Part shown: positions 2,909 to 42,344 of the stretch, one piece after another
How the letters are laid out: each line of letters starts with the position of its first letter
Position numbering within the stretch: the first letter of the stretch is position 1
DNA from: a virus
IMG/VR virus record: IMGVR_UViG_3300021471_000007
Location: 1 to 64,000 of that record
Length of the DNA: 64,000 bases
Direction: 5' to 3' (one strand)
The notes under the pieces: model-generated
Seen by the model: only the letters and a program-made list of their open reading frames with translations
Told to the model about the DNA's origin: nothing
Databases searched by the model: none
Program-made: the position numbers and the translations under genes

Positions 2909-3370
2909 ATGCTACATAAGTCGGATTATAATAATATGAAAGAATTAGATATTAGATACGGTACAAAACTTAATGATAAGGAATTAACTATTGCTAAACG
3001 GATACAAAACTGGAATTATATTGCTACTTTAAAATGTATTCAGGATTCAGGTGTTAATCATTATTCTGCTTCTAAAATACTAAAATGGCTCAGGAAAAAT
3101 GACGAAAGATATAGGAACGAAGTGCTATCTAAAAGACGGTTAAAAATCAGGAAGCAAAGAGAAATACGGCACTTAAATCATAATATTGATGTTGATAATG
3201 CGGTTTCATTACTTGGCATATTTTTCAATATAGAATTGAAAAACGAGGCTCGCAATCCCGAAACTGCCAGTGAGGATTGCGGTTTGCAAGACGAAGATGA
3301 CAATATCGGACATAATGATGGATTAGTGTCCGAACATGGTGTAAGCGTAGGCCCGGCATCGCCCATATAA
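2909..3370 (+). CDS. Hypothetical basic protein (3' end overlaps the structured RNA candidate)
   Basis: Open frame 2846-3370; ATG 2909 follows a GGTGG RBS-like site downstream of a TATA box. Confidence 0.6.
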   Translation: MLHKSDYNNMKELDIRYGTKLNDKELTIAKRIQNWNYIATLKCIQDSGVNHYSASKILKWLRKNDERYRNEVLSKRRLKIRKQREIRHLNHNIDVDNAVSLLGIFFNIELKNEARNPETASEDCGLQDEDDNIGHNDGLVSEHGVSVGPASPI

Positions 3371-3788: not shown

Positions 3789-4016
3789 ATGAAAGAAACA
3801 CTTGTTGATTACGGAAAGAAAGAGGAGACGGAAGAAGAACAGGATGAAAATGAAACAAAAACTTTTGTTATAACTTGGTCTGAAACTGTTTGGTATAGGA
3901 CGGTTATTGATGCACACGATGAGGACGAGGCCTGGGATGCGTTTTGGGATGACGATGGAGATACGGAAGAAACAGGAAGAGATGTTAATGACGATGCGGA
4001 ACTGCAAGAAGTATAA
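3789..4016 (+). CDS. Very acidic 75-aa protein with N-terminal LxDY tag (possible DNA mimic)
   Basis: GGAGG RBS; starts MKETLVDY; about 28 D/E versus 6 K/R. Confidence 0.75.
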   Translation: MKETLVDYGKKEETEEEQDENETKTFVITWSETVWYRTVIDAHDEDEAWDAFWDDDGDTEETGRDVNDDAELQEV

Positions 4017-4119
4017 TATGAGTAAAAACAGGATTCGTTTTTAAAGGCGATTTTGCATTTTGATTTAGGTTTTGCATTTGAATTTAATTGTTTTATAATA
4101 TTAAATTAATTCTTACAAT

Positions 4120-4225
4120 CGGTTTACGGTTATGTCTGTGAGGCTCGGCGCTGAAAGTGCGTGAGTGCGTGCGGGGATGTGTCATGGAGCCGATGAGCGG
4201 TCTAACATCATGTAAAGGAGGTGTA
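4120..4225 (+). promoter_or_regulatory. GC-rich structured 5' leader downstream of a TATA-like box
   Basis: TTTTATAAT at 4091-4099; stems TTTAC/GTAAA, GGCTC/GAGCC, GCGC-TGAAA-GTGC; ends at the AGGAGGTG RBS. Confidence 0.45.
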
Positions 4226-4228
4226 AAT

Positions 4229-4399
4229 ATGTTAGGACATACAATAGAAATGATTAATATACTTGGAAAACTAATAAACAATAGCATAGATAGTGGATTA
4301 TCTTTGCTGGTTTTGTTAGTGTTTTTGGGTATATTGGTTCTTGCTGGGAGTAAAGTTTGGTCTTGGCTCGTAAAAATATTTAACGGCGTCAGAAAATGA
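4229..4399 (+). CDS. Small single-pass membrane protein
   Basis: AGGAGGTG RBS; hydrophobic segment LSLLVLLVFLGILVLAG. Confidence 0.7.
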   Translation: MLGHTIEMINILGKLINNSIDSGLSLLVLLVFLGILVLAGSKVWSWLVKIFNGVRK

Positions 4400-4413
4400 C
4401 GCCGGTGATGTTT

Positions 4414-4653
4414 ATGTTAAATAAATTATCGGACTACTATAATAGCGGATTAAACATAGGAATGCGTGTGAAAGTAGATTTGCTTAATGGTGCAGGTGCA
4501 TCTATTAATATGATTTCTGGTGATGATGATTATATTGATGGTACGGTAGTTGGATATAGTAAAATGGAAGTTACAATAAAAATAGAAGGACATGGATTCT
4601 TGGTATTACCAAGAGCATATAGAAAAAGATGGTATGATGGATGCGTGGTTTGA
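4414..4653 (+). CDS. SH3/KOW-like small protein, paralog 1 (LxDY tag)
   Basis: MLNKLSDY...IGMRVKV...GTVVGYS...RWYDGCVV; GGTGA RBS. Confidence 0.75.
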   Translation: MLNKLSDYYNSGLNIGMRVKVDLLNGAGASINMISGDDDYIDGTVVGYSKMEVTIKIEGHGFLVLPRAYRKRWYDGCVV

Positions 4654-4863
4654 GTGTTAAAACGGTTATTAGATTATTGTAAAAAACAAGACGATGGTTT
4701 ATATATCGGGATGCATGTAAAAGTCTCGCTTGGTGTTGGTTTGTATGATGCTATTGTAATTGAATTTGATAAATCATATGTTACGGTCAAAATAATTACA
4801 ACTGGGTTTAGGATGCAAATTATTCGTAAAAAACGTAAGTGGTATGATGGTGCAGTAATATAG
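4654..4863 (+). CDS. SH3/KOW-like small protein, paralog 2 (LxDY tag)
   Basis: MLKRLLDY...IGMHVKV...KWYDGAVI. Confidence 0.75.
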   Translation: MLKRLLDYCKKQDDGLYIGMHVKVSLGVGLYDAIVIEFDKSYVTVKIITTGFRMQIIRKKRKWYDGAVI

Positions 4864-4872
4864 GTGATGGCG

Positions 4873-5106
4873 ATGTTAAATAAATTATCGGATTATTCTA
4901 AACGTGGTATACATATAGGTATGACCGTGTTTATAGGAGGAGATAAATTAATTATATTTTATCCAAGTATCGACCCAAGGGAAAAATATAAAGGCACGGT
5001 TGTAGGTTATAGTGATAATTTAGTGCATGTTAAAATGGAATTTAATAAAAAAACATTGTCTATTATGAAGAAGGACTTTGTGTGGTATAATGGATGTGTG
5101 TTATAA
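4873..5106 (+). CDS. SH3/KOW-like small protein, paralog 3 (LxDY tag)
   Basis: MLNKLSDY...IGMTVFI...GTVVGYS...VWYNGCVL; AGGTGA RBS. Confidence 0.75.
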   Translation: MLNKLSDYSKRGIHIGMTVFIGGDKLIIFYPSIDPREKYKGTVVGYSDNLVHVKMEFNKKTLSIMKKDFVWYNGCVL

Positions 5107-5118
5107 TGAGGTGGTGTT

Positions 5119-5394
5119 ATGTATAAGTGGTGGAAAAAGTGGTATGATGCTATAAATAAGGTAGAGTTGGTTAAAGAATTGCCGGCATTACAAGACATAT
5201 TTAATAATATAGAAGACGAGGATGTTAAAAGGCGGGCACCTTTAATTATAAATAGTTTGTTTGAGGATTTAATTGATTTTTTATCTATAAATGAAAACGG
5301 AGGTGATTTCATGACGGACGAGTTCTATGAAAGAGAAGATGATTTAGGATTGGATATTGATATAGATGAACAGGAAGATGATGAGGAAGAATAA
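5119..5394 (+). CDS. Hypothetical protein with acidic tail
   Basis: GAGGTGG RBS; internal GGAGGTGA + ATG at 5311; D/E-rich C-terminus. Confidence 0.7.
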   Translation: MYKWWKKWYDAINKVELVKELPALQDIFNNIEDEDVKRRAPLIINSLFEDLIDFLSINENGGDFMTDEFYEREDDLGLDIDIDEQEDDEEE

Positions 5395-5423
5395 ATTAAT
5401 ATACAAGGAGGAGGTGAAATTAA

Positions 5424-5807
5424 ATGATAATTCAGAAATATATGTATGACGGCGTGATAGGATTAGCACAGGAACGTTTGGCTAAAGCAATTGACAAGGT
5501 GCATAAAAAATATAAAAGCAAAATTGATGATGCGGAAGAAAAAGCAGAAAAACTATTTGCAAAGGAAGTAGTAACACGGTGCTATGAAGGTAAGTTAGAA
5601 TTGAAATATGGTCCTGGACGTGGCTTTTATATTGAGTATGACAAAATGGAGAAATTGAAGGAAAAACACTGGAAAGAATACAGAAAATTAGAAGAACAGA
5701 AAATCAAGGAGCTGAAGGCACTTGACGAAAAATATAAAAAATGGAAACTAAAATTTATCAAAAACGTGGCTAAAGGCACGATGATAGATTTGCCTGTTTT
5801 TGATTAA
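5424..5807 (+). CDS. Helical hypothetical protein, paralog A
   Basis: GGAGGTGA RBS; similar to the next ORF (IDKVHKKY vs IDEVRKYY; KYKKWK vs KYNAWK). Confidence 0.8.
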   Translation: MIIQKYMYDGVIGLAQERLAKAIDKVHKKYKSKIDDAEEKAEKLFAKEVVTRCYEGKLELKYGPGRGFYIEYDKMEKLKEKHWKEYRKLEEQKIKELKALDEKYKKWKLKFIKNVAKGTMIDLPVFD

Positions 5808-5832
5808 AATAAAATAAAAGGAGGAGGATAAA

Positions 5833-6234
5833 ATGCAATTTAATGAATATGTAGCGGAGAAGCAAACAGAAATGGCAAAGTTGTTTCTTAATAGGAAAAT
5901 AGATGAAGTAAGGAAATACTATGCCGAACAAATAGAGGCAGAAGCAGACAAAATACGGGACAAAATATTGAGTGAAAATAAGAGGAAATTTATAAGAGTT
6001 AGTGGAGGACTCATGACTTTTCCTCTAATTCAAGTAAAGGATGCAGATATGATAAGAAACAAATACAAAAATGAATTTAATGAAGCGGTTGAACCAATTG
6101 AAAAGAAAAGAGATGCAGTAATCAGGCAATTAAAAGACAAATACAACGCTTGGAAAATGACGATGTTAAAAGCGTTGATGAACGGCAAGGCCATAGGGAT
6201 AGAACCAGCATACTACAATATAAAATACAAATAG
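5833..6234 (+). CDS. Helical hypothetical protein, paralog B
   Basis: GGAGGAGG RBS; paralog of 5424-5807. Confidence 0.8.
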   Translation: MQFNEYVAEKQTEMAKLFLNRKIDEVRKYYAEQIEAEADKIRDKILSENKRKFIRVSGGLMTFPLIQVKDADMIRNKYKNEFNEAVEPIEKKRDAVIRQLKDKYNAWKMTMLKALMNGKAIGIEPAYYNIKYK

Positions 6235-6270
6235 GCGGGACACAATGTCCCGTTTTTAATTTTTTATTCT
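6235..6270 (+). terminator. Hairpin + T-run terminator
   Basis: CGGGACA-CAA-TGTCCCG followed by TTTTTAATTTTTT. Confidence 0.7.
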
Positions 6271-6287
6271 TATTGAGGTGATTAATT

Positions 6288-6434
6288 ATGGAGAAGAAAG
6301 AATATAAATTGGGAATAACTTTGGATAGAACATTAGTAATTTTAGATGAGAATAAGGAAATAATTGGAAAGATACACCCAGAAAGTTTTGTAGATGTTAT
6401 AAAAAAAGTATTGTTTACAGGCATAAGGTATTAG
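6288..6434 (+). CDS. Small hypothetical protein (48 aa, below the ORF-track cutoff)
   Basis: GAGGTGA RBS, ATG 6288, MEKKEYKLGITLDRT..., TAG ending at 6434. Confidence 0.6.
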   Translation: MEKKEYKLGITLDRTLVILDENKEIIGKIHPESFVDVIKKVLFTGIRY

Positions 6435-6455
6435 AATGCAGTGGGGTGATTAATT

Positions 6456-6659
6456 ATGGAGATGGAAAATATATTATTTAGGGATGAAATTATAAACAAA
6501 GTAAAGGAAATAATGTCAAAAGATATAACAAATGAAAAAAAGAGGTTGTTATTAAATGAATTGGAAAACAAACATTATCAGGAAGTATTCATTAAAACGC
6601 ATTTGTGTTCGCATTGCGGAGCACTTGATGTTGAAATTTGGTTCAAAGAAGAATTTTAA
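6456..6659 (+). CDS. Hypothetical protein (CxxC)
   Basis: GGGGTGA RBS; LCSHCG. Confidence 0.65.
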   Translation: MEMENILFRDEIINKVKEIMSKDITNEKKRLLLNELENKHYQEVFIKTHLCSHCGALDVEIWFKEEF

Positions 6660-6672
6660 AGGAGGTGCTATT

Positions 6673-6861
6673 ATGAATAAAAGCCAAAGGTTAGTTTTAG
6701 GCAAAGTATTCAATATAATAGATGAAAGGCGGAGCGAACTACAAAAATATAGGTTTAAAGTATATAATGAATTGGAAATTTTGAAATTAAAGAATATTAT
6801 AAAGAAAGAATTTGGACTTAACGATAAGGAAACAGAATTACTAAAACATGAGGTAGTTTAA
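6673..6861 (+). CDS. Hypothetical protein
   Basis: GGAGGTG RBS before ATG 6673. Confidence 0.65.
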   Translation: MNKSQRLVLGKVFNIIDERRSELQKYRFKVYNELEILKLKNIIKKEFGLNDKETELLKHEVV

Positions 6862-7170
6862 ATGAGGATGAAACAATCTGCCTTTGAGGCATTAATCAGC
6901 AGTATAGTTAAGATAGGCAAACATAGGCAGAAAATGAAACTTAAACGGGTTATTGGAAAAGAAGGTGTTGGATATTGGTTTTGTCCGATATGTAATACTA
7001 CTATTTATCCTGAGGATATTAATGAAAATAAGGATATAGTAGATTGGGGCATATTTGATGGAATGCTTTATCCGGTGTGCCCTATGCATAATTATTTTAT
7101 GGAATATGGTGAGGTTGGTAAAAATGAGAATAAAACAGAAGCGTTTTATGGATTTGATTGGTGGTTTTAA
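6862..7170 (+). CDS. Zn-ribbon protein, paralog 1
   Basis: MRMKQSAF...WFCPIC...PVCPMH. Confidence 0.75.
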   Translation: MRMKQSAFEALISSIVKIGKHRQKMKLKRVIGKEGVGYWFCPICNTTIYPEDINENKDIVDWGIFDGMLYPVCPMHNYFMEYGEVGKNENKTEAFYGFDWWF

Positions 7171-7390
7171 AAAAGACAATAAATATTGTAGCAACGTGGT
7201 TTGGGTGTGGCAATGTAACAATTGCGGATTGATTACAAATGTTACAAATACACGCAATATGATGCTGGCATATGACAGGGATAAAAGAGAGTATATACCA
7301 TTATGTCCATCATGCGGTCAGAAAATGGAACTAAAAAATATAGACGAATTGGAGGATGATGATTATGCGTATGAGTCAGGAAGATTTTGA
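7124..7390 (+). CDS. Zn-ribbon protein, paralog 2
   Basis: MRIKQKRF...WQCNNC...PLCPSC. Confidence 0.75.
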   Translation: MRIKQKRFMDLIGGFKKDNKYCSNVVWVWQCNNCGLITNVTNTRNMMLAYDRDKREYIPLCPSCGQKMELKNIDELEDDDYAYESGRF

Positions 7391-7565
7391 AAAGATGATA
7401 AGTTTAGATAAGAAAAAAGGACTTTGGATATGTTCACATTGTGGTTATTATGTTTCTAATAATGCTTTAAATGAGATTAAGGTATATTATGAAAGCAACG
7501 GTGTAAAAATACCATATTGTCCAATATGTGGCAGAGAAATGGGTTTTTATAGGAGAGGTGATTAA
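7365..7565 (+). CDS. Zn-ribbon protein, paralog 3
   Basis: MRMSQEDF...WICSHC...PYCPIC. Confidence 0.75.
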   Translation: MRMSQEDFEKMISLDKKKGLWICSHCGYYVSNNALNEIKVYYESNGVKIPYCPICGREMGFYRRGD

Positions 7566-7566
7566 T

Positions 7567-7899
7567 ATTAAGAAATGTCTGGTAGATTATGTTTCTGGTG
7601 TGGTTATCGATGGTTTCTTCGATTATAAGGAGTATGATATAATACAAGAATTTCAGGTGGATGAGGTGCCTGTTGCTGATAAATTGCGTGAATTTAATGG
7701 AAAAAAAGTAAGGGTTGAGATAATTAACCACGGTACTGATACCAAGAATGTTTATGAAGGAACTTTAACAATAGAGGATGACGATGTGGATGGTATTATA
7801 TATCAGGGTAGTATACATATTAAAACAAAAAAAGGTATAGTTATACTGGATGAAATTATGGTGCCGAGTGCATCATGTTTAAAGGTATCGTTGTTATAG
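7567..7899 (+). CDS. Hypothetical protein with LxDY tag, probable ATT start
   Basis: GAGGTGA-ttaat-ATT AAG AAA TGT CTG GTA GAT TAT, i.e. (M)KKCLVDY; an in-frame GTG inside the RBS is the alternative start. Confidence 0.6.
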   Translation: MKKCLVDYVSGVVIDGFFDYKEYDIIQEFQVDEVPVADKLREFNGKKVRVEIINHGTDTKNVYEGTLTIEDDDVDGIIYQGSIHIKTKKGIVILDEIMVPSASCLKVSLL

Positions 7900-7913
7900 G
7901 AGGAGGTGTTATT

Positions 7914-8279
7914 ATGGGAAAAAAGAAAAGTATAGATGAGTTGTTAGACGGATTTGAATATGAAAGATACGACGGAAAAAGCAGAGGAAGCATTCAAATG
8001 ACAGAAGACACCATAAAACAATTGGTTAGCATTAAGGAATCTATTATAATTAAAGGCAAAACATCGGTGTTAATACCATTTGAATTGGTGAAGGAACAAT
8101 TTGGACACAATTATAAATATTTACATAGTTATACCTGGCAACTCAATAAAAAACTAAAACAGATACGAATAGGACTAAAAGTTGGAGAGAAAACAAAACG
8201 GCAACCGGGAGATGTTGGAAAAAGAAAATATGTTAGATTTTATTTATTTGATGAATGGAACGGAGGTGACGGCAAATGA
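7914..8279 (+). CDS. Hypothetical protein, possibly DNA-binding
   Basis: GGAGGTG RBS; basic protein. Confidence 0.75.
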   Translation: MGKKKSIDELLDGFEYERYDGKSRGSIQMTEDTIKQLVSIKESIIIKGKTSVLIPFELVKEQFGHNYKYLHSYTWQLNKKLKQIRIGLKVGEKTKRQPGDVGKRKYVRFYLFDEWNGGDGK

Positions 8280-8731
8280 AGTGTGTTCATTGCGGAAGAG
8301 AGTGTGATTCATATTTTGAAACTAAAAGCGGAAGACCGCTATGTATGAGGTGCAAAATATATTATTCAAAAAGTAGTAATGAATTGAGGTATGCTGATGA
8401 ATTTGAGGTTGAAATGATAAACTCTTTGTTAAATGATAGTAGCAACAAGCGGTTAAATATGAATTTTAATATAACGGGCGCTTATATAAGATTACACGAT
8501 ACAATAAAAAATATAGATTTAAATAAACCATATAATGGAAACAAAACCAGGTATCTGTTGTATTTTTATATGCCGGAATTAAATGATTTTACTTTTGATA
8601 TTATGTATGATGCGGATTTAAATTCGTTTTTATGTTCATCTGGCAAAACAAAAAAATACAAAACACTATTAGGTTGTTTTGTGGAAATGGCAAGACAGAT
8701 GAAAAAAATAATAAAAATAAGGAGGAATTAA
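8276..8731 (+). CDS. N-terminal Zn-finger hypothetical protein
   Basis: MKCVHCG...LCMRC. Confidence 0.75.
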   Translation: MKCVHCGRECDSYFETKSGRPLCMRCKIYYSKSSNELRYADEFEVEMINSLLNDSSNKRLNMNFNITGAYIRLHDTIKNIDLNKPYNGNKTRYLLYFYMPELNDFTFDIMYDADLNSFLCSSGKTKKYKTLLGCFVEMARQMKKIIKIRRN

Positions 8732-8732
8732 T

Positions 8733-9731
8733 ATGTGTGGAATAGGAGCATTGGTGATTAACAAGGAAGTAGATAATGAACGAAAAGAGAACATGATAGA
8801 AGGCATGTATAGAGCGTTAGAGAAACGTGGCTCGGATGCATCAGGAATGTTAACGATAGACAAAGACGGAGTGCCTTTTGTATACAAAAAACCGGTAGAA
8901 GCATCAGAATTTTTAGTGGATGTTGGATTCAGGAAGTTCTTAAAACAACATATAAAAAACAATATATTTGTGGTGCACACAAGAGCGAAAACAAAAGGAG
9001 AACCAGCAAACAATAACAATAACCACCCAATAATAGGAGATAGATACATAATAGTGCATAATGGTGTGGTATTGGATAGGTTGGATAAACTAATAAAGCA
9101 ATTAAACAAAAAACAATATGAACAGAAAAATATAGAGGTGGATTCATATGCAATAACGGTGCTATTAGACAAGTATGGTATAGAAGGATTAAGCAGTTTG
9201 GATTCAAGCAATGCAATAATAGGATATGATACAAAAGCCAAAAAGTTAATACTATGGAGGAACAAAAAAGAACTCCTTGTAGGTTATGGCAATGATATAT
9301 TTGTTGCGGCATCTAACAAGGAAGCAATAGAAAATGTATTTAACAAAAGAGAATATATATTAAATATCGTGGAGCATACAGAATATAATACGAATTATGT
9401 ATATTCGGATATGAAAGATAAAACACTATACGAAACAAAACTTAAGGATATAAATTTTAAAGCGATGCCAATATATTACAGGGCTAAAACGGTGGAAGAA
9501 ATAATCGACAAATTCAAGGGTTCGAGTGTGTGTGAAATAGACGGTATTTTCTATATAAAATTCATATCTGATTTGGAAAAGAAAACGAATAAGGCATTGA
9601 AGCGTGTATTCAGTAAATACAACGAATACTGGAAAGTAAGAGATACAAAACTGAGGCAATTTATAGAAATACTAAGCAAATATGAAAGTAATGAGTGGAA
9701 ACCGCACAAGCATAAGAGGTGGGGAAGATGA
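8733..9731 (+). CDS. Class II (Ntn) glutamine amidotransferase
   Basis: N-terminal MCGI, RGSDASG, HTRAKT, NNHP, VHNGV, EVDS. Confidence 0.93.
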   Translation: MCGIGALVINKEVDNERKENMIEGMYRALEKRGSDASGMLTIDKDGVPFVYKKPVEASEFLVDVGFRKFLKQHIKNNIFVVHTRAKTKGEPANNNNNHPIIGDRYIIVHNGVVLDRLDKLIKQLNKKQYEQKNIEVDSYAITVLLDKYGIEGLSSLDSSNAIIGYDTKAKKLILWRNKKELLVGYGNDIFVAASNKEAIENVFNKREYILNIVEHTEYNTNYVYSDMKDKTLYETKLKDINFKAMPIYYRAKTVEEIIDKFKGSSVCEIDGIFYIKFISDLEKKTNKALKRVFSKYNEYWKVRDTKLRQFIEILSKYESNEWKPHKHKRWGR

Positions 9732-10876
9732 AAACAAAATCATTTGGAATCGAAGTAGAATATCCGATGTGGGATTCTGGGGGAGGATACACGGCTTGGG
9801 TAGATGAGTTTAATATTCTGTCCAAAAAGTTACCAGGAAAGTTATACAGAGATGCAACACCGTGCGGAGAATATGCAACATCGGTGCACACGGATTACAA
9901 TGCTTTGTTGGATGAATTGTTTTCATCTTTCAAACAAATAATGGAAGCAGCAAACAATGACGGCGTATCTATTGGTCTAATAGGTGCATACGGTGGACTT
10001 AGAGAAACATGGAGCGGACATATGCATTTAGGCAAGGCTCCAGATAAGAAATTTACATATAAAGAACACGATGAATTAAAGCGGCAGTTGCATGGAGCAC
10101 AAACATTAATAGAGTTATTAGCACAAAACAAAGGTGATGGTACAAGAAAAGATAGGAGAGCAACTACACGGTCTTACTTTAGGAAATCTACTTTCTGGGC
10201 ACAAGAAACAGATAGAAATGTGAATTTGGCATGGAATGATTTAGGAACACTGGAATGTAGAATTCCGCCTTCATCGGATTTCTTTCATTTGGTATTTGTA
10301 TTAGCAACGATGAGGGCGTGGGCAAATTCAGAAATATATACATATGGATTATCATCAAATTGGGACCAAGCAATAAACAACGGTTCAGAAGGAAAGTATA
10401 TGATACCAACTCCAAACGGTGTTGAGATAGTATCATATCAGGCATATGTTACATATTGGCTCGAAAGGATAAAACCACAATTGGATGCAGAACTAAAAAC
10501 ACTTAAACAGAAATACAGGCACAAAGTAGAGGAATATAGGGAATTCTTACCATATACGACATTATCGGATGTAGTAACGCCTTGGACTAAAACAAAGTTA
10601 TTTAATAAGACAGCGGATTTAATAGTGAAAAAGCATACATATATAGATGGCATAAAATTAAATTTGTTGTTCCCAAACATAAAAGGAAAACTGGACAATA
10701 AAAAAATAATAGACATAATACAGCGTGTTGATAAAAGTGAGGAGTCAAAAGAATACAAAAGATTAAGATTATTTCAGGAAGCAATAAGGAGAGGAAAACC
10801 AACAATAGCAAAACCAGAAGACAGGGATAAAGTGAGGCTATATTTATCAAAGGAAATGATTAAGGAGGCGATATAG
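9728..10876 (+). CDS. COOH-NH2 ligase (glutamate-cysteine ligase/amidoligase fold)
   Basis: FGIEVEY (ExE), DAT..GEYAT, GHMHLG, TLECR; overlaps the GATase gene. Confidence 0.82.
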   Translation: MKTKSFGIEVEYPMWDSGGGYTAWVDEFNILSKKLPGKLYRDATPCGEYATSVHTDYNALLDELFSSFKQIMEAANNDGVSIGLIGAYGGLRETWSGHMHLGKAPDKKFTYKEHDELKRQLHGAQTLIELLAQNKGDGTRKDRRATTRSYFRKSTFWAQETDRNVNLAWNDLGTLECRIPPSSDFFHLVFVLATMRAWANSEIYTYGLSSNWDQAINNGSEGKYMIPTPNGVEIVSYQAYVTYWLERIKPQLDAELKTLKQKYRHKVEEYREFLPYTTLSDVVTPWTKTKLFNKTADLIVKKHTYIDGIKLNLLFPNIKGKLDNKKIIDIIQRVDKSEESKEYKRLRLFQEAIRRGKPTIAKPEDRDKVRLYLSKEMIKEAI

Positions 10877-11272
10877 TTGATATATGTATGTGCGCCACAT
10901 TATAAAACGGAAGATTTAACAGGTGATATAGCAGAGGAAATAGCAAAGGAAGCAGGTGTAGAGTTTGTAACAGGAACGGTGGATAATGCCATGTTTGTAT
11001 TAGAAATAGGCGGTATAGAAGACAAAGTGATAGATGGCAGCATACCGGATTTGTTGGTGGATGATAAAACACATACACAAATATTTAAAACCATATTTGA
11101 TAGAATATTTAATATACGAAAAACAACATTTAATACGGCATTATCCAACACATTTGATAGAAGGTATGCCAGATTGGAACTTACAAATAAAGTAAGATAT
11201 AGTGAAAAACACAGGAAACTGTTGGTAAAAACAGCAGCGGAAATATTAAGGGAGATTAAAAAACTCTTTTAA
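10877..11272 (+). CDS. Short or degenerate Zn-hydrolase-fold protein (N-formylglutamate amidohydrolase-like)
   Basis: VCAPH, FVLEIGG (His of DxHG missing), RLELT..VR; parallels the next gene. Confidence 0.55.
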   Translation: MIYVCAPHYKTEDLTGDIAEEIAKEAGVEFVTGTVDNAMFVLEIGGIEDKVIDGSIPDLLVDDKTHTQIFKTIFDRIFNIRKTTFNTALSNTFDRRYARLELTNKVRYSEKHRKLLVKTAAEILREIKKLF

Positions 11273-11325
11273 TTTTATTTTAAGGGATAGTGTTTAGGCA
11301 TTATTCCGAATAAAATAAAGGAGGT

Positions 11326-12102
11326 ATGAATATGAGTGTAACGAATTTTGGTGCAGGAGACGAAAATAGTGTTGTTATTTCGGTGCCGCATCATAAAGTA
11401 ATTAAAGTCAGGACAAGGCCGGTACGGATGTATGAAACGGAAGAAACCATGACAAAGGAAATAGGAAGGGAACTTGCTACTGAAACAAAATCGGCATTAG
11501 TATTAAATGAAACAGAAGTGGATGTAAATAATCCATATGACTTTTTTAAAAACGATGCGGAAATAAAAGAGCAATACTATAATGATATAAGGAAACTTAA
11601 ACCACGCTTGGTTTTGGATATACACGGGGCAGCAGACAAGGGACCATTGTTTCTTGGTTCCAATGTAAACGGAAAAAGGTATATGCGTGAGTATTACGAT
11701 AAACCTATAATGGAATCTGTTCCAAGACCGGATGTAGACATAGAATTCAGGAGGAAGATAGGCGATGTCACATCAAGAGGCATAGTAATACACAAGTTAT
11801 CTGAATTTCTGGCAAGACACGGATTGGTAGTTGGCATAGAGATGGTATATCCAGGAGGCAGAGTAATAAAAGAAACAGCAGGAATAAACACAGATAGTAT
11901 TGCTTTGGAAATAACAAAAAGAGTAAGGACAGACGATGAAAGACGGAGTCAGTTAATAGATGCGTTGTCTGAATTTATAAAGTGGTATAGGACAGGAGAA
12001 GATGAAGAAAACATAGACCATATAGAAAATGATGAAAGAAGGAGCGATGAAATAACATCGGAATTGGCACAGCATTCGCAAACAGAACGTTATATTGGCT
12101 GA
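11326..12102 (+). CDS. Zn-dependent amidohydrolase (N-formylglutamate amidohydrolase / poly-gamma-glutamate hydrolase-like)
   Basis: VVISVPH, E..T, LVLDIHG, Y.GG, ALEI..VR. Confidence 0.75.
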   Translation: MNMSVTNFGAGDENSVVISVPHHKVIKVRTRPVRMYETEETMTKEIGRELATETKSALVLNETEVDVNNPYDFFKNDAEIKEQYYNDIRKLKPRLVLDIHGAADKGPLFLGSNVNGKRYMREYYDKPIMESVPRPDVDIEFRRKIGDVTSRGIVIHKLSEFLARHGLVVGIEMVYPGGRVIKETAGINTDSIALEITKRVRTDDERRSQLIDALSEFIKWYRTGEDEENIDHIENDERRSDEITSELAQHSQTERYIG

Positions 12103-12125
12103 GGCCAATATTTCTTTTTTCTTTA
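12092..12125 (+). terminator. Hairpin + T-run terminator
   Basis: ATATTGGC-TGAG-GCCAATAT then TTCTTTTTT. Confidence 0.65.
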
Positions 12126-12137
12126 TGAGGTGTTGGT

Positions 12138-12401
12138 ATGAAAAAACGATTAATAGATTATGTAAAGAACGATGGATGTGGCATTGGTTGGGGAATTGTG
12201 AGAGAGGATTTATGTGAAGACCATATGTATGGAGAATATGTTGCAATTGATTCCATGATACGCTTCGCCGGATGTCTGGTGACTATAATAGAGGAACACT
12301 CTGATTACTTTAAAATCGCTGAGGATCCGGAAGAGTGTTGTTGGACCGAGGAAATGTTTTCTGAACTTCATATAAATAACAGATATGGGGTGGTTAGATG
12401 A
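12138..12401 (+). CDS. SH3/KOW-like small protein with LxDY tag
   Basis: MKKRLIDY...GCLVTI...WTEEMF. Confidence 0.72.
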   Translation: MKKRLIDYVKNDGCGIGWGIVREDLCEDHMYGEYVAIDSMIRFAGCLVTIIEEHSDYFKIAEDPEECCWTEEMFSELHINNRYGVVR

Positions 12402-12724
12402 AAAACAAATTGAATGATTATATAACGGATGATGTAATTTTTAGTATAACAATAGCAGGAAATGAACTAAAAACAAAAATAGGAAGGACTGCACTCGAGG
12501 AATTCATAGACGGTCCAATGAATACTACAAACTCTATAATGTTTTTTGTAGGACTATTGGATAACCTAACATCAGATGGAAATAAGGTTTCAGTTGAATA
12601 TATAAGTGACCATACAGAAGAAATTTTGGCAAAACTCACGGCAGAGGTGAGTAAATATGCATTTGAACAATATATGAAGGATATCATTAAAAAACTTAAT
12701 CTTGAAGTATTGGTGGAGGTTTGA
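12398..12724 (+). CDS. Hypothetical protein with LxDY tag
   Basis: MKNKLNDY; start overlaps the previous stop. Confidence 0.75.
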   Translation: MKNKLNDYITDDVIFSITIAGNELKTKIGRTALEEFIDGPMNTTNSIMFFVGLLDNLTSDGNKVSVEYISDHTEEILAKLTAEVSKYAFEQYMKDIIKKLNLEVLVEV

Positions 12725-13784: not shown

Positions 13785-14069
13785 ATGACTGAAAAAAGGC
13801 TGCAACTAATATTCGGCAACACAACATTATTTAGGCTATTAGATGAGCTAATAATGAATAGACAGTATAGAACAATGACACAACTGGCACAGGATGCAAA
13901 TATAAGCAGAACTACATTGTTGAAACTAACACAAAAATTAAAAGAAACGAATATAATTAGTAGAACAAGGCGTGGACGTGAAACGTTGATACGACTCAGC
14001 AAAAACAGAATAGCAAAACAATTATGCGGTCTTGCATATGAAGTTGAGGAAGTATGGAAGAAGCAATGA
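13785..14069 (+). CDS. Winged-HTH transcriptional regulator
   Basis: TMTQLAQDANISRTTL...L.ETNII.RTRRGRE. Confidence 0.85.
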   Translation: MTEKRLQLIFGNTTLFRLLDELIMNRQYRTMTQLAQDANISRTTLLKLTQKLKETNIISRTRRGRETLIRLSKNRIAKQLCGLAYEVEEVWKKQ

Positions 14070-15073
14070 AAGGCTGGGTAACCATTTTAAAGGGCGAACA
14101 ATCAGATTTAATGGCTAATGATGAAAAAAATCCCTCATGGAGACCTATAGACGAAGTGGATGAACCACAATCGAGACAAGTTGTAGATTCGGAATTAATA
14201 TTTGACATTGACGGAGATGATTACGAACCAGCGAGGATGTTAGCACAAAACTTGGAAAATGAGTTATTCAGCCAGAACATTCCATTCTTAAGGTTTACTT
14301 CAGGAAGATTGTTTCACTATTCGGTCTTCATTGATCATGCATCAACATTTGATCCGGCGCACATGATCGATTATTATAAAAAAAATAAAAGCGAATTTGA
14401 TAAGAGGCATTATGTTTATAACTTTGCAAAAAAAATGAGGTATGCTGTATTTAAATATATATTAGATAAGGTGGCACCGGTTAAAGGCGCTAATATTGAC
14501 TGTGGCCTCATGAAATCAAAGAGACATTTAATACGTATTTGTGGTGGTCGGCACTCCTCCGGTTATTATAAGTCGCTCCTATCCAAAATTCCCGACCACC
14601 AACCACATATCAAAAAAGATGATGTAGTATATCCAAAGTCAATAAATTATTGGTTTGTAAATGATTTTATTACATCATTTGCATATAAATATCATTTAAG
14701 GCCAATTGTCCACAGGGGAAAAAGAGATAAAAAACAAAAACATATTAAATGGATTGAAAAAATATTTGAAATTGAAATAGACGATGGGAGACACCGCGTA
14801 GTAAACTTGATACTTGCACCGTATCTGGTAAATATCGTTGGAATGGATGTTGATAAAGCTACAGATAAAATATATGAGTGGGTTGAACATAACAAAGAAT
14901 TATCATACACACAAATAACAAGAGATTATATAAAGTATCAGGTTGAATATGCATTAAAGCGCGAATTACAACCACTATCAAAGGCAAGTCTAAGGTATTA
15001 TTTTAGTGAGAAAATACAAAAGAAACTATGTGGATACTATTATGATAATACATTAAAGGGGTTTAGTAAATGA
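14054..15073 (+). CDS. AEP DNA primase with C-terminal PriX-like domain
   Basis: IFDID, TSGRLFH, RHLIR primase motifs; WIEKI...DDGRHR...LAPYLVNI resembles PriX. Confidence 0.8.
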   Translation: MEEAMKGWVTILKGEQSDLMANDEKNPSWRPIDEVDEPQSRQVVDSELIFDIDGDDYEPARMLAQNLENELFSQNIPFLRFTSGRLFHYSVFIDHASTFDPAHMIDYYKKNKSEFDKRHYVYNFAKKMRYAVFKYILDKVAPVKGANIDCGLMKSKRHLIRICGGRHSSGYYKSLLSKIPDHQPHIKKDDVVYPKSINYWFVNDFITSFAYKYHLRPIVHRGKRDKKQKHIKWIEKIFEIEIDDGRHRVVNLILAPYLVNIVGMDVDKATDKIYEWVEHNKELSYTQITRDYIKYQVEYALKRELQPLSKASLRYYFSEKIQKKLCGYYYDNTLKGFSK

Positions 15074-16463: not shown

Positions 16464-17120
16464 ATGGGATATATAATAGGAATAGATGATGTAACGAGAT
16501 GCCCGGTCATAGGGAGTTTGATATGTGTGGGTGCTCTTATAGATGAATCTTTCATTCCATGTATGAAAAAGCTTGGAGTAAAGGATAGCAAAGTAATAAC
16601 ACATAAAAGAATACAAGAGCTTGCAAAAGAATTAAAACGATTGGGAGAATACCACTCTGTTAAGATTGATGCAAAAATGATAAGCAAATCTAAAACAGAC
16701 TTTAATATGAATGATATGGAATGTGCAGCATTTTGTTCAATAGCAGATACATTATTGGATTTACAACCAGATGCAAAGGTTCAAATAAATAATTTTGACA
16801 GAACACGCGAAAAATTTATACAAAGAGCAGAAAAACTTGGATTTAATTTTGATTGGAGCAAATGGATAATAGACCATGAAAACGAAACAAGAGATACTGT
16901 TGTTGGAGCAGCGAGCATAGTAGCAAAGGATTTATCATTAAAGGAATATGAAAAACTTAGAGAATTGTATGGTGATTTTGGCTCTGGTAACCCAAACGAT
17001 GAAAGGACGCTGACATTTTTAAGGGAAAAGTTAAGAAGTAATGAACACTGTCCTATAATAAGATATAATTGGAAAACAATTAAAAGATTAAAAGGCGAGA
17101 TAAACGAGGAAACAAATTGA
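16464..17120 (+). CDS. rnhB: Ribonuclease HII (divergent active site)
   Basis: IGIDD..R.PVIG, GVKDSK, AASIVAK, YGDFGSG.P.D..T, IR..WKT. Confidence 0.88.
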   Translation: MGYIIGIDDVTRCPVIGSLICVGALIDESFIPCMKKLGVKDSKVITHKRIQELAKELKRLGEYHSVKIDAKMISKSKTDFNMNDMECAAFCSIADTLLDLQPDAKVQINNFDRTREKFIQRAEKLGFNFDWSKWIIDHENETRDTVVGAASIVAKDLSLKEYEKLRELYGDFGSGNPNDERTLTFLREKLRSNEHCPIIRYNWKTIKRLKGEINEETN

Positions 17121-23261: not shown

Positions 23262-24983
23262 ATGGATGAAAGGGAATTTAAATTATTGGCTGAAATGTCA
23301 GACGAAGAAGAAAAGGCAGCATTACAATTGATAAACGATTTAGGTACAGCTACGAAAGAACAAATTGCAAAGTATGTGTCTCCTGCACACTTCTCTGATT
23401 TTTTAATAAAATACAAGGATTTGATAGGAAACATAAGGGGCGATGAATGGTTTTTGAATGCGGATGGAAAAAACTTTGTGTCTTATATAAATAATATCGA
23501 TAACGAGGTATTGAGAGACTATTCTGAATATGATGACGAAGCTGAAAAACATTTGGAAGACGATCCGCTTGTGTTCTTTTTACAAGTAATGAACAAAATG
23601 TTTAAGGGAAGCGATAAACAAAAGATATTACAATTTGCATCAGCACTGTCTGCTCCACTTGGGACTAGACCATTAAACGATTGGGGAGTAGGAAGATCTG
23701 GTGTAGGAAAATCAGCAATAAAAAGAAGAACATTAACTTGCATACCAAATAACATGTGGATAAAGTTTAATTCGATGTCTGACAAAAGAATCTTTTATAC
23801 TGTATTAAAAAACGGTTCTGATTATTATAAAGGCAAGACGCTGTTCTTTGATGAGGTTGACATTGGAACAGAACAACTTACATTATTAAGAGCATTGACA
23901 GATCCAGACATGAGTGAAAAATATATTGTACACCAAACCCTTGATATGCAAAGCAAAGAAAAAATATTGGATCTAAAGATAGAAAAACCAATAACAGTGT
24001 GGTTTACAAGTGTAGAAGCTGTTAAAGATGATCAATTAAAGAACAGGTTCTTATTATCAAATCCGCAGGAAGATGAAAGTATAGACAGGATGGTTTTTGA
24101 ACATCAAATGTATTATGAACAGAGAGGAATTGATCCAGATAAGGTAAATGCTCCTGAAGCAGATATTGTTAGGAGAATGGTAATTAAGATTGTTGAAAAT
24201 ACAAAGAATTTATTAACTCTGCATCCTTATGATGTTGAATGGGTAAAAATAACAAATCGTAGATTACTCCCATTCTTTATGACGTTGGTTGGTATAATTA
24301 CTAGGATATATTATAAAAAAAGGAAGATATTAAAAAACAAATACATAGTATCGACAATTGACGATTTAAAAATAGCGGCTGCAATATGGGAGGAAATTGC
24401 AGGAACAACAGTATACCAAGTCAGCGAAGCAGCACTAAAACTACTTCCACATATTCCAGATGAGCCTGAAAATGCAATAACAAGATCAGAATTAATGAGC
24501 AAATTAAAAGGACTCGGAAGATATGCAATAAGATACAGAACTGACAACCTCGCTGATGCTGGTTTGATCAATTCAAAAAAGATAAAAAACACGTGGGTAT
24601 ATTGGAAGACAGATGAAGGAAAAGCTATCAATAGTGACAATTCATTGAAACATAGTGTTAATGAAGAGAATGTGAAAGCAATAATAGGTAATCTTTCAGA
24701 TGAGCCAATAGACAAAATGATAGAATACATAAAAAGAAGCAATACTAAGCTGTTAGATTTGTTATCCAAGCCCTTAGAAGAGAGATACGACCATAATCAT
24801 AGAATTAACATGAGTGCTATAGATAAAATTGTAAATGATGTACGTATAAAGACAGTTGATGAATATTCATCTTATTGTGATGGCCATCATGGATATGGGA
24901 TAATAAAATATGAAGTAACAGATAAAAATGGTAATATAATGAGATATTGTAGAAAATGTGGTGAGAAATTTGAAAACGCATAA
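23262..24983 (+). CDS. AAA+ ATPase/helicase (MCM-clade-like) with wHTH domains
   Basis: Walker A GRSGVGKS, Walker B LFFDE, Arg finger QLKNRF, C-terminal wHTH. Confidence 0.8.
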   Translation: MDEREFKLLAEMSDEEEKAALQLINDLGTATKEQIAKYVSPAHFSDFLIKYKDLIGNIRGDEWFLNADGKNFVSYINNIDNEVLRDYSEYDDEAEKHLEDDPLVFFLQVMNKMFKGSDKQKILQFASALSAPLGTRPLNDWGVGRSGVGKSAIKRRTLTCIPNNMWIKFNSMSDKRIFYTVLKNGSDYYKGKTLFFDEVDIGTEQLTLLRALTDPDMSEKYIVHQTLDMQSKEKILDLKIEKPITVWFTSVEAVKDDQLKNRFLLSNPQEDESIDRMVFEHQMYYEQRGIDPDKVNAPEADIVRRMVIKIVENTKNLLTLHPYDVEWVKITNRRLLPFFMTLVGIITRIYYKKRKILKNKYIVSTIDDLKIAAAIWEEIAGTTVYQVSEAALKLLPHIPDEPENAITRSELMSKLKGLGRYAIRYRTDNLADAGLINSKKIKNTWVYWKTDEGKAINSDNSLKHSVNEENVKAIIGNLSDEPIDKMIEYIKRSNTKLLDLLSKPLEERYDHNHRINMSAIDKIVNDVRIKTVDEYSSYCDGHHGYGIIKYEVTDKNGNIMRYCRKCGEKFENA

Positions 24984-25761
24984 AATATATATTGGAGATT
25001 CAAGAAAAGTATTAACAAAGTTTGATTCAAACAGTATCAACTTTGTTGTAACATCACCACCATATTTTGTTGGTAAGCAATATGGTGAATCATATGAAGA
25101 TGCAGGAGAATATATAGATTATATTAAAATGTTAACTGTCGTGTTCAAAGAGTGCTATCGCGTATTAACTGAACATTCGTTTATATGTGTTAACATTGGT
25201 AGAAATACCGGAGTGAACACGGTTGCACACATATCACATATATTGGAAAACATAGGCTTTAAATATGTGCATAATATACAATGGAAAAAACCTTATGGAG
25301 CAGGTATTGTAACATTCTTCCACAAATATCCATATGCGAGATATTATATGCCTGTTCTTGTAACCGAAGACATATTAGTATATTCAAAGGGTGAAATTAA
25401 TGGATACAGGGGAGAAAGAAAAACAATAGTACCAGACGACATTGTAAATAAATATGATACAAACGTTTGGGAAATAAATCCAAAAACCAATTCAAAACAT
25501 CCAGCACCATTTCCTTTGCAGCTTCCGTTAAATTGTATTTATTTATATACCAATAAGGATGATATTGTACTAGATCCATTTCTGGGAAGTGGTACAACAA
25601 TTAAAGCCGCATCAATAGCAGGGAGGAACTCGATTGGAATAGAAATAAACAAAGATTACATTCCAATGATAAAGAGCTATATTGGATACGGCCAACAAAA
25701 AATTGGAGAACAAGTAAAATATGAAATAATAGAGGGTGATATAGATGGAGAGAGAGCGTGA
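24958..25761 (+). CDS. Beta-class amino-DNA methyltransferase (SPPY, probably N4-cytosine)
   Basis: TSPPY, HPAPFP, VLDPFLGSGTT, GIEIN. Confidence 0.92.
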   Translation: MVRNLKTHKIYIGDSRKVLTKFDSNSINFVVTSPPYFVGKQYGESYEDAGEYIDYIKMLTVVFKECYRVLTEHSFICVNIGRNTGVNTVAHISHILENIGFKYVHNIQWKKPYGAGIVTFFHKYPYARYYMPVLVTEDILVYSKGEINGYRGERKTIVPDDIVNKYDTNVWEINPKTNSKHPAPFPLQLPLNCIYLYTNKDDIVLDPFLGSGTTIKAASIAGRNSIGIEINKDYIPMIKSYIGYGQQKIGEQVKYEIIEGDIDGERA

Positions 25762-41283: not shown

Positions 41284-41811
41284 TTATATGTTATCTTCTG
41301 CATAGAAATCTTTTACAAGACAACCAGCACTTATAGTAAGTTCTGCTGTTCCATCAGCAGCTAAACTTATTTCACCAGTTGTTGTAAAGTATGCATGATT
41401 CATTAATATGTTTATCTGTTTTGTACCGTCGGTCAGTTTTATTAATATTGCTTTATCTTTTCTGTCACCGGTTGAATCAACAAAGGACCACCTATAATAT
41501 GATCCGCTTGGATTTGATTCGGTTTGTGTCGACAATCCAAAGTATTCCAAATCCGAAATGTCCTGGAACACCAATGTGAGATCGCATGTTCTCAATTCGG
41601 GTCTCTTTTCTTCTTTATATTGTGTATTGAATACATTTAGAACATCTGCACCAGCCGCTCCTCCGCCAAAGGTGACCTCTTTTAATTTTGCACTTACACT
41701 CGAACCAGACGCATTATTTGCAAAATCTGTAGCTAGGTCTTGTGTTGTTGATACACCTGTCCATGCATCACCAATGCTAACCGTGGCTTGTGTTGCATAC
41801 CATAAAGTCAT
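41284..41811 (-). CDS. Major tail tube protein, copy 2
   Basis: Paralog of 41826-42344; position upstream of chaperone and tape measure genes. Confidence 0.7.
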   Translation of the reverse strand: MTLWYATQATVSIGDAWTGVSTTQDLATDFANNASGSSVSAKLKEVTFGGGAAGADVLNVFNTQYKEEKRPELRTCDLTLVFQDISDLEYFGLSTQTESNPSGSYYRWSFVDSTGDRKDKAILIKLTDGTKQINILMNHAYFTTTGEISLAADGTAELTISAGCLVKDFYAEDNI

Positions 41812-41825
41812 TATTAGTCACCTCC

Positions 41826-42344
41826 TTATATGTCGTCTTCTGCATAGAAGTCCTTTACTAAACAAACAGCACTCATTGTTAATTCAGCTGTACCGTCTGC
41901 GGCAAGTGATATTTCACCCGTGGTAGTAAAGTAAGCATTGTTCATTAAAACATTAACCGTATTTGTACCGTTTGTTAATGTAAATAATATGCTTTTATTT
42001 TCCCTGTTTCCTGTCTTATCAGAACCGTTTACTCTGTAGTAAGATCCTGTAACATATGTAGCAGTTCCAAAAATCCATTCTAAGGCATCTATATCAGAAG
42101 CTACCAATGTAAAATCAACTGTTCTGAGCTCTGGTCTTTTTTCTTCCTTTAGCTGTGTACTAAAAACATTCAAAACATCAACACCTGCAGCTCCACCACC
42201 GAATGTAACTTCCTTCAAGTCTGCACTAAAGTCTGCACCATTAGCATTTGCATCAAAGTCTGATTTTAAATCTGTGGTTGTTGAAACAGAACTCATTGCA
42301 TCCCCTATGCTAACAGTTCCCTGAGTTGCGTACCATAAAGTCAT
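41826..42344 (-). CDS. Major tail tube protein, copy 1
   Basis: MTLWYATQ...LKEVTFGGGAAG...AYFTTTGEISLAADGTAELT...CLVKDFYAED shared with copy 2. Confidence 0.7.
   Translation of the reverse strand: MTLWYATQGTVSIGDAMSSVSTTTDLKSDFDANANGADFSADLKEVTFGGGAAGVDVLNVFSTQLKEEKRPELRTVDFTLVASDIDALEWIFGTATYVTGSYYRVNGSDKTGNRENKSILFTLTNGTNTVNVLMNNAYFTTTGEISLAADGTAELTMSAVCLVKDFYAEDDI

Follow-up and report, generated by a model that had tools for sequence, protein, structure and literature searches.

A shared N-terminal L-x-D-Y peptide on seven small proteins of a probable archaeal tailed virus: a candidate docking motif

Introduction

Viruses use short common peptides to connect a shifting repertoire of effectors to a single machine. 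By means of such peptides, anti-restriction proteins enter the head of phage T4 and replication enzymes stay attached to the sliding clamp. The subject of this study is such a peptide in the IMG/VR record IMGVR_UViG_3300021471_000007, a single contig of 75,248 bp that comprises the whole viral genome. The window, that is, the whole stretch of DNA that was analysed, is its first 64 kb (positions 1 to 64,000). Seven proteins encoded between positions 3789 and 12724 begin with the consensus M-[K/L]-x-x-L-x-D-Y, hereafter termed the tag.

Judged from its sequence, the tag comes closest to two described peptides, the capsid-targeting sequence (CTS) of T4 and the terminal peptides that bind the sliding clamp, and membership in either class is conjectural. 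T-even phages carry internal-protein genes that encode diverse small proteins countering host defences, and these proteins have only the CTS in common (PMC3012670). As in the T4 proteins IPI, IPII and IPIII, the tag is an extreme N-terminal short peptide and the sole feature common to small, diverse, fast-changing and otherwise unrelated accessory proteins (PMC3012670). The L-x-D of the tag also has the hydrophobic-x-acidic form of the T4 cleavage signature, in form only. In contrast, the tag sequence is dissimilar to the CTS, the operon that contains the tagged genes looks early and is remote from the head genes, and the virus is of archaeal type with an HK97-like head module.

The clamp-binding peptides are represented by the PCNA-interacting protein (PIP) box, Qxx[LIM]xx[FY][FY]. 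PIP motifs reside mostly at the extreme N- or C-terminus (PMC3504372), and the PIP of human DNA ligase 1 (Lig1) is placed in the disordered N-terminus (PMC9767926). The likeness to the tag lies in a terminal, disordered motif that forms a mini-helix, with a hydrophobic residue and an aromatic residue three positions on, borne by unrelated clients (PMC3504372; PMC9767926). Unlike the PIP box, the tag has neither Gln1 nor the second aromatic residue, so that two PIP-defining positions fail; its invariant Asp is not PIP-defining, and its carriers are not DNA enzymes.

A further comparison is suggested by a candidate amidoligase locus among the tagged genes. The leaders of ribosomally synthesized and post-translationally modified peptides (RiPPs), such as graspetides, are conserved N-terminal recognition segments on variable products, with a carboxylate-amine ligase gene nearby and Lys and Asp as cross-link or acceptor residues. 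Here, the carriers are instead folded proteins of 8-12 kDa, the enzyme is not an ATP-grasp ligase, and no recognition domain was found. For phage amidoligase-type systems, metabolite synthesis or the modulation of gene expression has been proposed as the role (PMC11706807). Literature searches, which were limited, found no published account of a tag of this kind in archaeal viruses.

Seven genes share one N-terminal peptide

A scan of all six frames of the 75,248-bp genome with the pattern [ATG/GTG/TTG/ATT/ATA/ATC/CTG]-x3-L-x-D-Y returned exactly seven sites and no others, all on the + strand and within a span of less than 9 kb. These are the N-termini that a first-pass annotation of this DNA had listed, and all are present in the sequence with L5, D7 and Y8 invariant. 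Each start is preceded at a distance of 4-7 nt by a Shine-Dalgarno (SD)-like element (GGAGG, GGTGAT, GAGGTG or GGGGTGG). The basic residue reported for positions 2-4 proved to be a lysine in all seven tags, compared with 31% of all genes. A relaxed motif search added a single gene, at 896, with a chance-like match.

The first tagged gene (3789..4016, + strand; tag codons 3789-3812; SD GGAGG 7 nt upstream) encodes a very acidic protein of 75 aa that opens with MKETLVDY and has an isoelectric point of 4.05 and 28 D/E residues. Three clear paralogues with 42-45% identity and a Tudor/SH3-like barrel follow on the same strand, namely paralogue A (4414..4653; MLNKLSDY; 79 aa; tag codons 4414-4437; SD GGTGAT + 4 nt), paralogue B (4654..4863; MLKRLLDY, with GTG as the first codon; 69 aa; tag codons 4654-4677) and paralogue C (4873..5106; MLNKLSDY; 77 aa; tag codons 4873-4896; SD AGGTGAT + 4 nt). 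The fifth gene (7567..7899, +; tag codons 7567-7590) reads KKCLVDY after an ATT start and encodes a beta-rich protein of 110 aa. The remaining two are 12138..12401 (+; MKKRLIDY; tag codons 12138-12161), which encodes an SH3_15-like domain of 87 aa, and 12398..12724 (+; MKNKLNDY; tag codons 12398-12421), which encodes a protein of 108 aa modelled as alpha/beta. All carriers are small orphans of 8-12 kDa.

The start sites stand as first placed. Gene 4654 begins with its GTG immediately 3' of the stop codon of 4414. The ATT start of 7567 is located one base past the stop codon of the preceding gene, with the SD GGAGAGGTGAT + 4 nt, and this geometry (GGTGAT + 4 nt) is that of 4414 and 4873; the GTG at 7528, the start picked for this gene by gene callers, is without an SD. 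A variant contig from another metagenome carries a 2-nt insertion after 4868, between the upstream GTG/ATG codons and the ATG at 4873, which excludes the upstream in-frame starts in that variant and thus supports 4873 as the start. The gene call P0009 from another assembly opens at the same Met as tagged gene 3789.

With the composition of this proteome, the N-terminal combination L5/D7/Y8 is expected by chance about 0.04 times (152 genes x 2.6e-4), as against the seven observed, and internal L.DY is unenriched, with 7 observed versus 5.4 expected proteome-wide. A post-hoc-corrected test compared the commonest residue triple at positions 2-10 with that found in 300 shuffles of the N-termini. 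For all genes the count was 7, and the shuffles usually gave a maximum of 3 and reached their highest value of 5 once in 300. With the three paralogues collapsed the count was 5, a value above the 4 that no shuffle exceeded. The excess of the motif over chance thus outlasts the removal of the tandem copies, the point on which the earlier claim could have failed.

Selection at the peptide level

The invariant L5 is encoded by CTT, TTA, CTG and TTG in different tags, and the x positions are free. Between pairs of tags, mostly 13-19 of 24 nucleotides are identical, as against mostly 4-13 of 24 in each 24-nt flank. The varied Leu codons, together with a DNA likeness that ends at codon 8, indicate selection on the peptide. 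An RNA- or DNA-level element was considered and rejected on the codon variation and the sharp boundary of similarity. The exception to the general divergence is the pair 4414 and 4873, the tags of which are identical at 22 of 24 nucleotides, including a TCG codon, as compared with 47% for the remainder of the two genes; this identity suggests that the 5' ends share their descent or have undergone gene conversion.

Strain variation is distributed in the same sense. Within the covered tags only two sites vary: 3800 A>G is synonymous in the tag of 3789, and the sole effect of 7577 G>A is a Cys-to-Tyr exchange at position 4 of the 7567 tag, a variable position. Several changes and one in-frame indel fall in the bodies of 3789 and 4654.

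When 1.84 billion representatives were searched exhaustively by HMMER with the paralogue profile, a sole foreign homologue emerged, P0005, encoded on a 502-bp ENA contig, along with one other match, a weak repeat protein. P0005 reads MKKRLLDY after four residues that probably reflect a mis-called start, and compared with 4654 it retains 7 of 8 tag residues and 31 of 61 (51%) of the remainder. The tag is therefore kept in the one orthologue at hand, which is as far as the expectation of conservation among orthologues could be borne out.

Other searches were less productive. Word-based homologue searches with 12138, 12398 and 7567 returned the virus itself only. Queries with the major capsid protein (MCP), P0005, the amidoligase, the primase and the paralogue alignment gave nothing useful in IMG/VR, the JGI metagenomes or the GTDB genomes. 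A scan of IMG/VR DNA for MK[KN]xLxDY starts gave, among the matches listed, single chance-like ones, and its two double-match loci were unrelated. A search with the large terminase (TerL) identified one relative with 70% identity, the 9.5-kb contig of which includes neither the leading region nor a tag; against genomes, TerL gave distant bacterial matches only. Megablast of the region against GenBank phages found no match.

The bodies behind the tag

The bodies were earlier described as one acidic, four SH3-like, one beta-rich and one helical protein. The acidic and beta-rich assignments hold, the four SH3-like proteins resolve into the three Tudor/SH3-like paralogues and one SH3_15-like protein, and the supposedly helical 12398 is modelled as alpha/beta. 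The AlphaFold2 (AF2) model of the paralogues, computed from a 4-sequence alignment, is a confident five-strand barrel with predicted local distance difference test (pLDDT) scores of 77-92, which Foldseek matches best to Tudor and SH3 domains. Residues 1-9 have pLDDT values below 50, with a short helix at residues 5-9, in contrast to the confident body. The model is suggestive of a tag that forms a flexible terminal mini-helix outside the folded body, as is usual for short linear docking motifs. An Sm-like fold, in which the alpha-1 helix packs as an integral element on a five-stranded barrel with Sm1/Sm2 motifs, was considered and found unsupported, because the helix is of low confidence in AF2 and the best Foldseek matches are Tudor/SH3 rather than Sm.

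Residues 20-77 of 12138 match PHROG 17705/7488, the only significant family found when all seven tagged proteins were searched against Pfam and PHROG. Its structural neighbours in the Atlas, which include SH3_15 proteins, align from residue 15. A relative of 12138, gp49 of Clostridium phage phiCP26F, lacks the tag, its N-terminus being the SH3 strand itself; the tag on 12138 thus looks like an add-on. In 7567, as read from its sequence, about 45 residues would separate the tag from a barrel-like segment. The single-sequence AF2 model of 12398 is of low confidence (pLDDT 55) and consists of a helix at residues 4-7, a beta hairpin, four helices and one strand. In the Atlas it has weak neighbours, none of them SH3-like.

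Alignment by hhalign of the paralogue profile with each of the other four bodies revealed no relation beyond the tag, with probabilities of 0.5-12%, and in the alignment of 12398 to the paralogues only residues 1-11 align. By sequence comparison, then, the tag appears to be carried by at least three, and probably five, unrelated bodies.

What may be an eighth, degenerate copy is found at the N-terminus of a 153-aa protein (2909..3370, + strand), which reads MLHKSDY with L5 deleted. This is the first gene past a TATA-like box at 2836, and GGTGGT lies 3 nt upstream of its start. Its opening sequence, ATGCTACATAAGTCGGATTAT, matches the tag DNA of 4873 minus the TTA codon at 18 of 21 positions, including the TCG codon. 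Such matches are expected 0.01 times per window, yet a second, apparently unrelated match also turned up, and the status of 2909 as a former tag is uncertain.

The leading operon

In the first 15 kb, GATC occurs 1, 0 and 4 times in successive 5-kb segments and CTAG does not occur (0, 0, 0), while elsewhere most of the genome has about 7-21 GATC and 1-12 CTAG per 5 kb. GTAC and TCGA are not comparably depleted in the leading region. On compositional grounds, this paucity marks the region as one that is apparently under special restriction pressure, like DNA that leads or enters first. Two TATA-like boxes, located at 2836 and 13756 and identified by consensus match only, flank all of the tags and the glutamine amidotransferase (GATase)/amidoligase cluster. 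From the GATC/CTAG-poor sequence and the bracketing TATA-like boxes, the tagged genes are probably early accessory genes. The designation "early" given to them by the first-pass annotation is plausible, as they are located in the depleted first 14 kb, downstream of the box at 2836. We infer from the lack of homologues a fit with fast-evolving roles in host takeover or anti-defence.

In contigs from two further metagenome runs, the sequence jumps from position 10692 back to 6264 across 28 foreign letters, which indicates that a relative with a rearranged or mosaic early region exists. About half of the matching sequence from those runs continues into DNA unlike this virus.

A docking peptide read by one partner

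The tag is position-specific, selected at the peptide level, bounded at codon 8, apparently located outside the folded body and better conserved than the bodies that it precedes. As the most conserved part of its carriers, and one that is terminal, short, amphipathic, apparently not packed on the body and carried by several bodies, it is best read as a docking peptide; that it is a short linear docking motif for one common partner is a proposal to which we assign an even chance. The tag would then act as a small amphipathic helix on a flexible arm, selection would keep it on the small, fast-evolving accessory proteins of the first, restriction-site-poor operon, and one shared partner would receive all of the carriers through this peptide. 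The shared addressing system proposed earlier is upheld insofar as the tag is real, position-specific and selected as a peptide, whereas PCNA, the capsid and the amidoligase gained no support as its reader.

Several observations weigh against a docking motif. The annotation had described a fixed tag on different folds, and although no sequence relation among the bodies is detectable, five of the seven are small beta-barrels. With these five collapsed to one, the triple test gives 3 observed versus a typical 3, which is chance level, and the quadruple K2-L5-D7-Y8 (3 observed after the same collapse) is equalled in 12 of 300 shuffles. The force of one tag on unrelated proteins thus hinges on whether the barrels are independent; if they constitute one diverged family, the independent tagged lineages drop to three and the corrected statistics are marginal. 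The AF2 basis for a free tag is the 4-sequence alignment, and with one foreign homologue on a 502-bp contig, conservation across viruses rests on a single sequence. Degenerate patterns derived in part from the tag retrieved no relative of a tagged protein from IMG/VR, the JGI metagenomes or the GTDB genomes. The scaffold/protease, MCP and portal proteins showed no motif resembling the tag. The four partners considered below are ranked by inference, and none gained support from the tests in this analysis.

The alternative that survives best is that the tag is an inherited family feature. Tandem duplication from one gene for an N-terminal helix plus small barrel would have spread a helix that serves folding or self-association and has no external reader, and the two non-barrel carriers would have received the tag by 5'-end exchange or have diverged extremely. 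Three carriers are indeed tandem paralogues, the five barrel bodies have a G-h-x-I-G/D strand 1-5 residues past the tag, and the near-identity of the 4414 and 4873 tags (22 of 24 nt, with the TCG codon) and the chance-level triple statistic after collapse of the barrels point the same way, as does a region full of tandem paralogue sets (5424/5833, and a zinc-ribbon trio with its own conserved N-terminus). However, hhalign detects no similarity among the bodies, 12138 matches a different, recognised phage SH3 family whose members have no tag, and G-h-x-h-G is a generic first strand in SH3-like folds. The AF2 models, moreover, suggest that the tag is unpacked on the barrel and that 12398 is alpha/beta. 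The tag would be by far the most conserved part even under common descent. We consider a family feature doubtful, although it is the alternative to be taken most seriously.

The docking motif, if accepted, would have practical consequences once its reader is identified. The tag would be a handle with which to pull out a host or viral hub, early effectors could be recognised by their label rather than by homology, of which these genes have essentially none, and the tag could be used for the delivery of foreign cargo. The case is a small one, with seven genes of about 150 in one orphan virus and a putative function.

Candidate partners

By analogy to the T4 CTS, the docking partner may be the prohead interior in a scheme of "load and perhaps clip". 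The tag would bind the scaffold or the prohead interior, small effectors such as anti-restriction proteins would be packaged and injected with the DNA, and the tag may be cut at L-x-D by the prohead protease. The T4 prohead protease cuts L/I-x-E, and L-x-D is of the same hydrophobic-x-acidic form. A candidate protease-scaffold fusion of 368 aa (47435-48541, - strand) adjoins the HK97-type MCP, upstream of it. From its sequence, the N-terminal half with FLDHKD looks protease-like and the other half looks like a very acidic, coiled-coil scaffold, in which KKYPYP(E/D)D is repeated; sequence searches of Pfam, PHROG, NCBIfam and the PDB gave no matches for this protein. The carriers, small orphans of which one is very acidic, form a gene pattern like that of the T-even internal proteins, which is the best-documented precedent (PMC3012670). 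In opposition to this proposal, the tagged genes belong to the first operon, which is apparently early, the head module is 35 kb away on the opposite strand, the tag has no sequence likeness to the T4 CTS, and the scaffold, MCP and portal are themselves without a tag-like motif. Location in the GATC-poor leading operon on the replication-gene strand also bears on whether the tagged genes are expressed at prohead assembly, and suggests early expression. Capsid targeting is thus rated as unlikely, and a hub protein of the host, taken as a class, as a less likely docking partner still.

The GATase-II/amidoligase/hydrolase system (8733-12102) could read L-x-D-Y and modify the nearby Lys or Asp7. 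Carboxylate-amine ligases use amines and carboxylates as substrate types, and every tag offers both in its Lys at positions 2-4 and its Asp7. Two tagged genes are directly 3' of the cluster and one is 1.2 kb upstream, and the two TATA-like boxes (2836 and 13756) enclose the cluster and all tags in what may be a single transcription unit. On the other hand, four tags are 4-5 kb distant, Pfam and NCBIfam confirm the GATase only and not the amidoligase, and these same resources detect no leader-recognition domain in 7914, 8276, 9728, 10877 or 11332. Relatives of the amidoligase locus that might be scored for co-occurrence were not found in the collections searched. The phage systems of this type are, furthermore, credited with metabolite or expression roles instead (PMC11706807). 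As a docking partner, this putatively co-transcribed system with a tag Lys or Asp as the modification site is improbable. The boldest form of the idea is a virus-private address code that routes immediate-early effectors to one receptor, with the carriers as substrates of a GATase/amidoligase/hydrolase "writer-eraser" acting on Lys 2-4 or Asp7; this would be equally improbable but, if true, would provide the first defined protein targets of phage amidoligase systems.

Within the class of host hubs, PCNA is the specific candidate. The tag would bind the clamp from the extreme N-terminus, with L5 as PIP position 4 and Y8 as position 7. Many PIPs have L-x-x-Y spacing and an acidic residue ahead of the aromatic one, and the tag fits both. 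Its terminal, apparently disordered location is that of a PIP box and its extreme-terminal position is usual for such motifs (PMC3504372), with an N-terminal precedent in human Lig1 (PMC9767926). No DNA polymerase was recognised among the virus proteins, and the virus may therefore lean on the host replisome. However, all seven tags have K or L at residue 2 rather than the Gln of motif position 1, and the combination of an aliphatic residue with two aromatic ones is absent, since a second aromatic occurs in one of seven tags (residue 9 is G, Y, C, S, V, V or I). The earlier comparison with the PIP box thus holds for the L-x-x-aromatic core and fails for the two other positions. The carriers are not replication enzymes. 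The PriX-domain primase subunit (14054-15073, +) has a canonical PIP-like QKKLCGYY about 10 residues from its C-terminus, which indicates that the canonical form is in use in this virus; the viral RNase HII (16464-17120) is without a C-terminal PIP. PCNA docking is accordingly very improbable. A protease that would recognise the tag as a degron has a slimmer chance as the docking partner.

The weakest explanation, a nucleotide-level element (translation operator, downstream box or protein-binding site) or else chance or mis-called starts, draws on the GAT-TAT common to five of seven tags and on the fixed SD distance of all of them, but is close to negligible given the four Leu codons and free x positions, the fact that GAT and TAT are merely preferred codons at 32% GC, the confinement of DNA likeness to codons 1-8, the chance expectation of just 0.04 and the backing of the starts by SD geometry and the indel variant.

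Genome organisation and additional observations

The source is an uncultured hydrothermal-vent tailed virus, probably with an archaeal host. Metagenomes that contain this DNA are from hydrothermal-vent, marine and sediment samples, and runs of these kinds share 6-35% of the sequence words sampled from the tag-bearing region. Tailed-virus genes include those for the HK97-type MCP, a tape-measure protein, tail proteins, TerL and the portal, and the archaeal affinity is suggested by the PriX primase domain, which scores over the curated cut-off. The GC content across the window is 30-39%, and strong GGAGGTGAT-type SD sites precede genes. Non-structural genes occupy the + strand from about 71 kb across the origin as far as 28.5 kb, and virion genes occupy the - strand between 28.9 and 71 kb. 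An N6/N4 DNA methylase is encoded at 24958-25761.

Bases 1-50 of the genome are found again at ~75061-75110, 188 bases short of the contig end, and bases 1-100 have no exact match. The recurrence of the first 50 bases at ~75,061 suggests that the assembly closes on itself; the sequence indicates either such closure or a short, imperfect terminal repeat.

Tandem duplications abound in the leading region, and 5424/5833 is a further pair. Three adjoining zinc-ribbon paralogues (6862-7565, + strand; starts at 6862, 7124 and 7359) have an N-terminal motif of their own, MR[MI][KS]Q-x-x-F-x-x-[LM]-I. Among the virion genes, two adjoining paralogues of 172 and 175 aa (41284-42344, - strand) share the identical opening MTLWYATQ.TVSIGDA and look like tandem duplicated tail or tube-type proteins.

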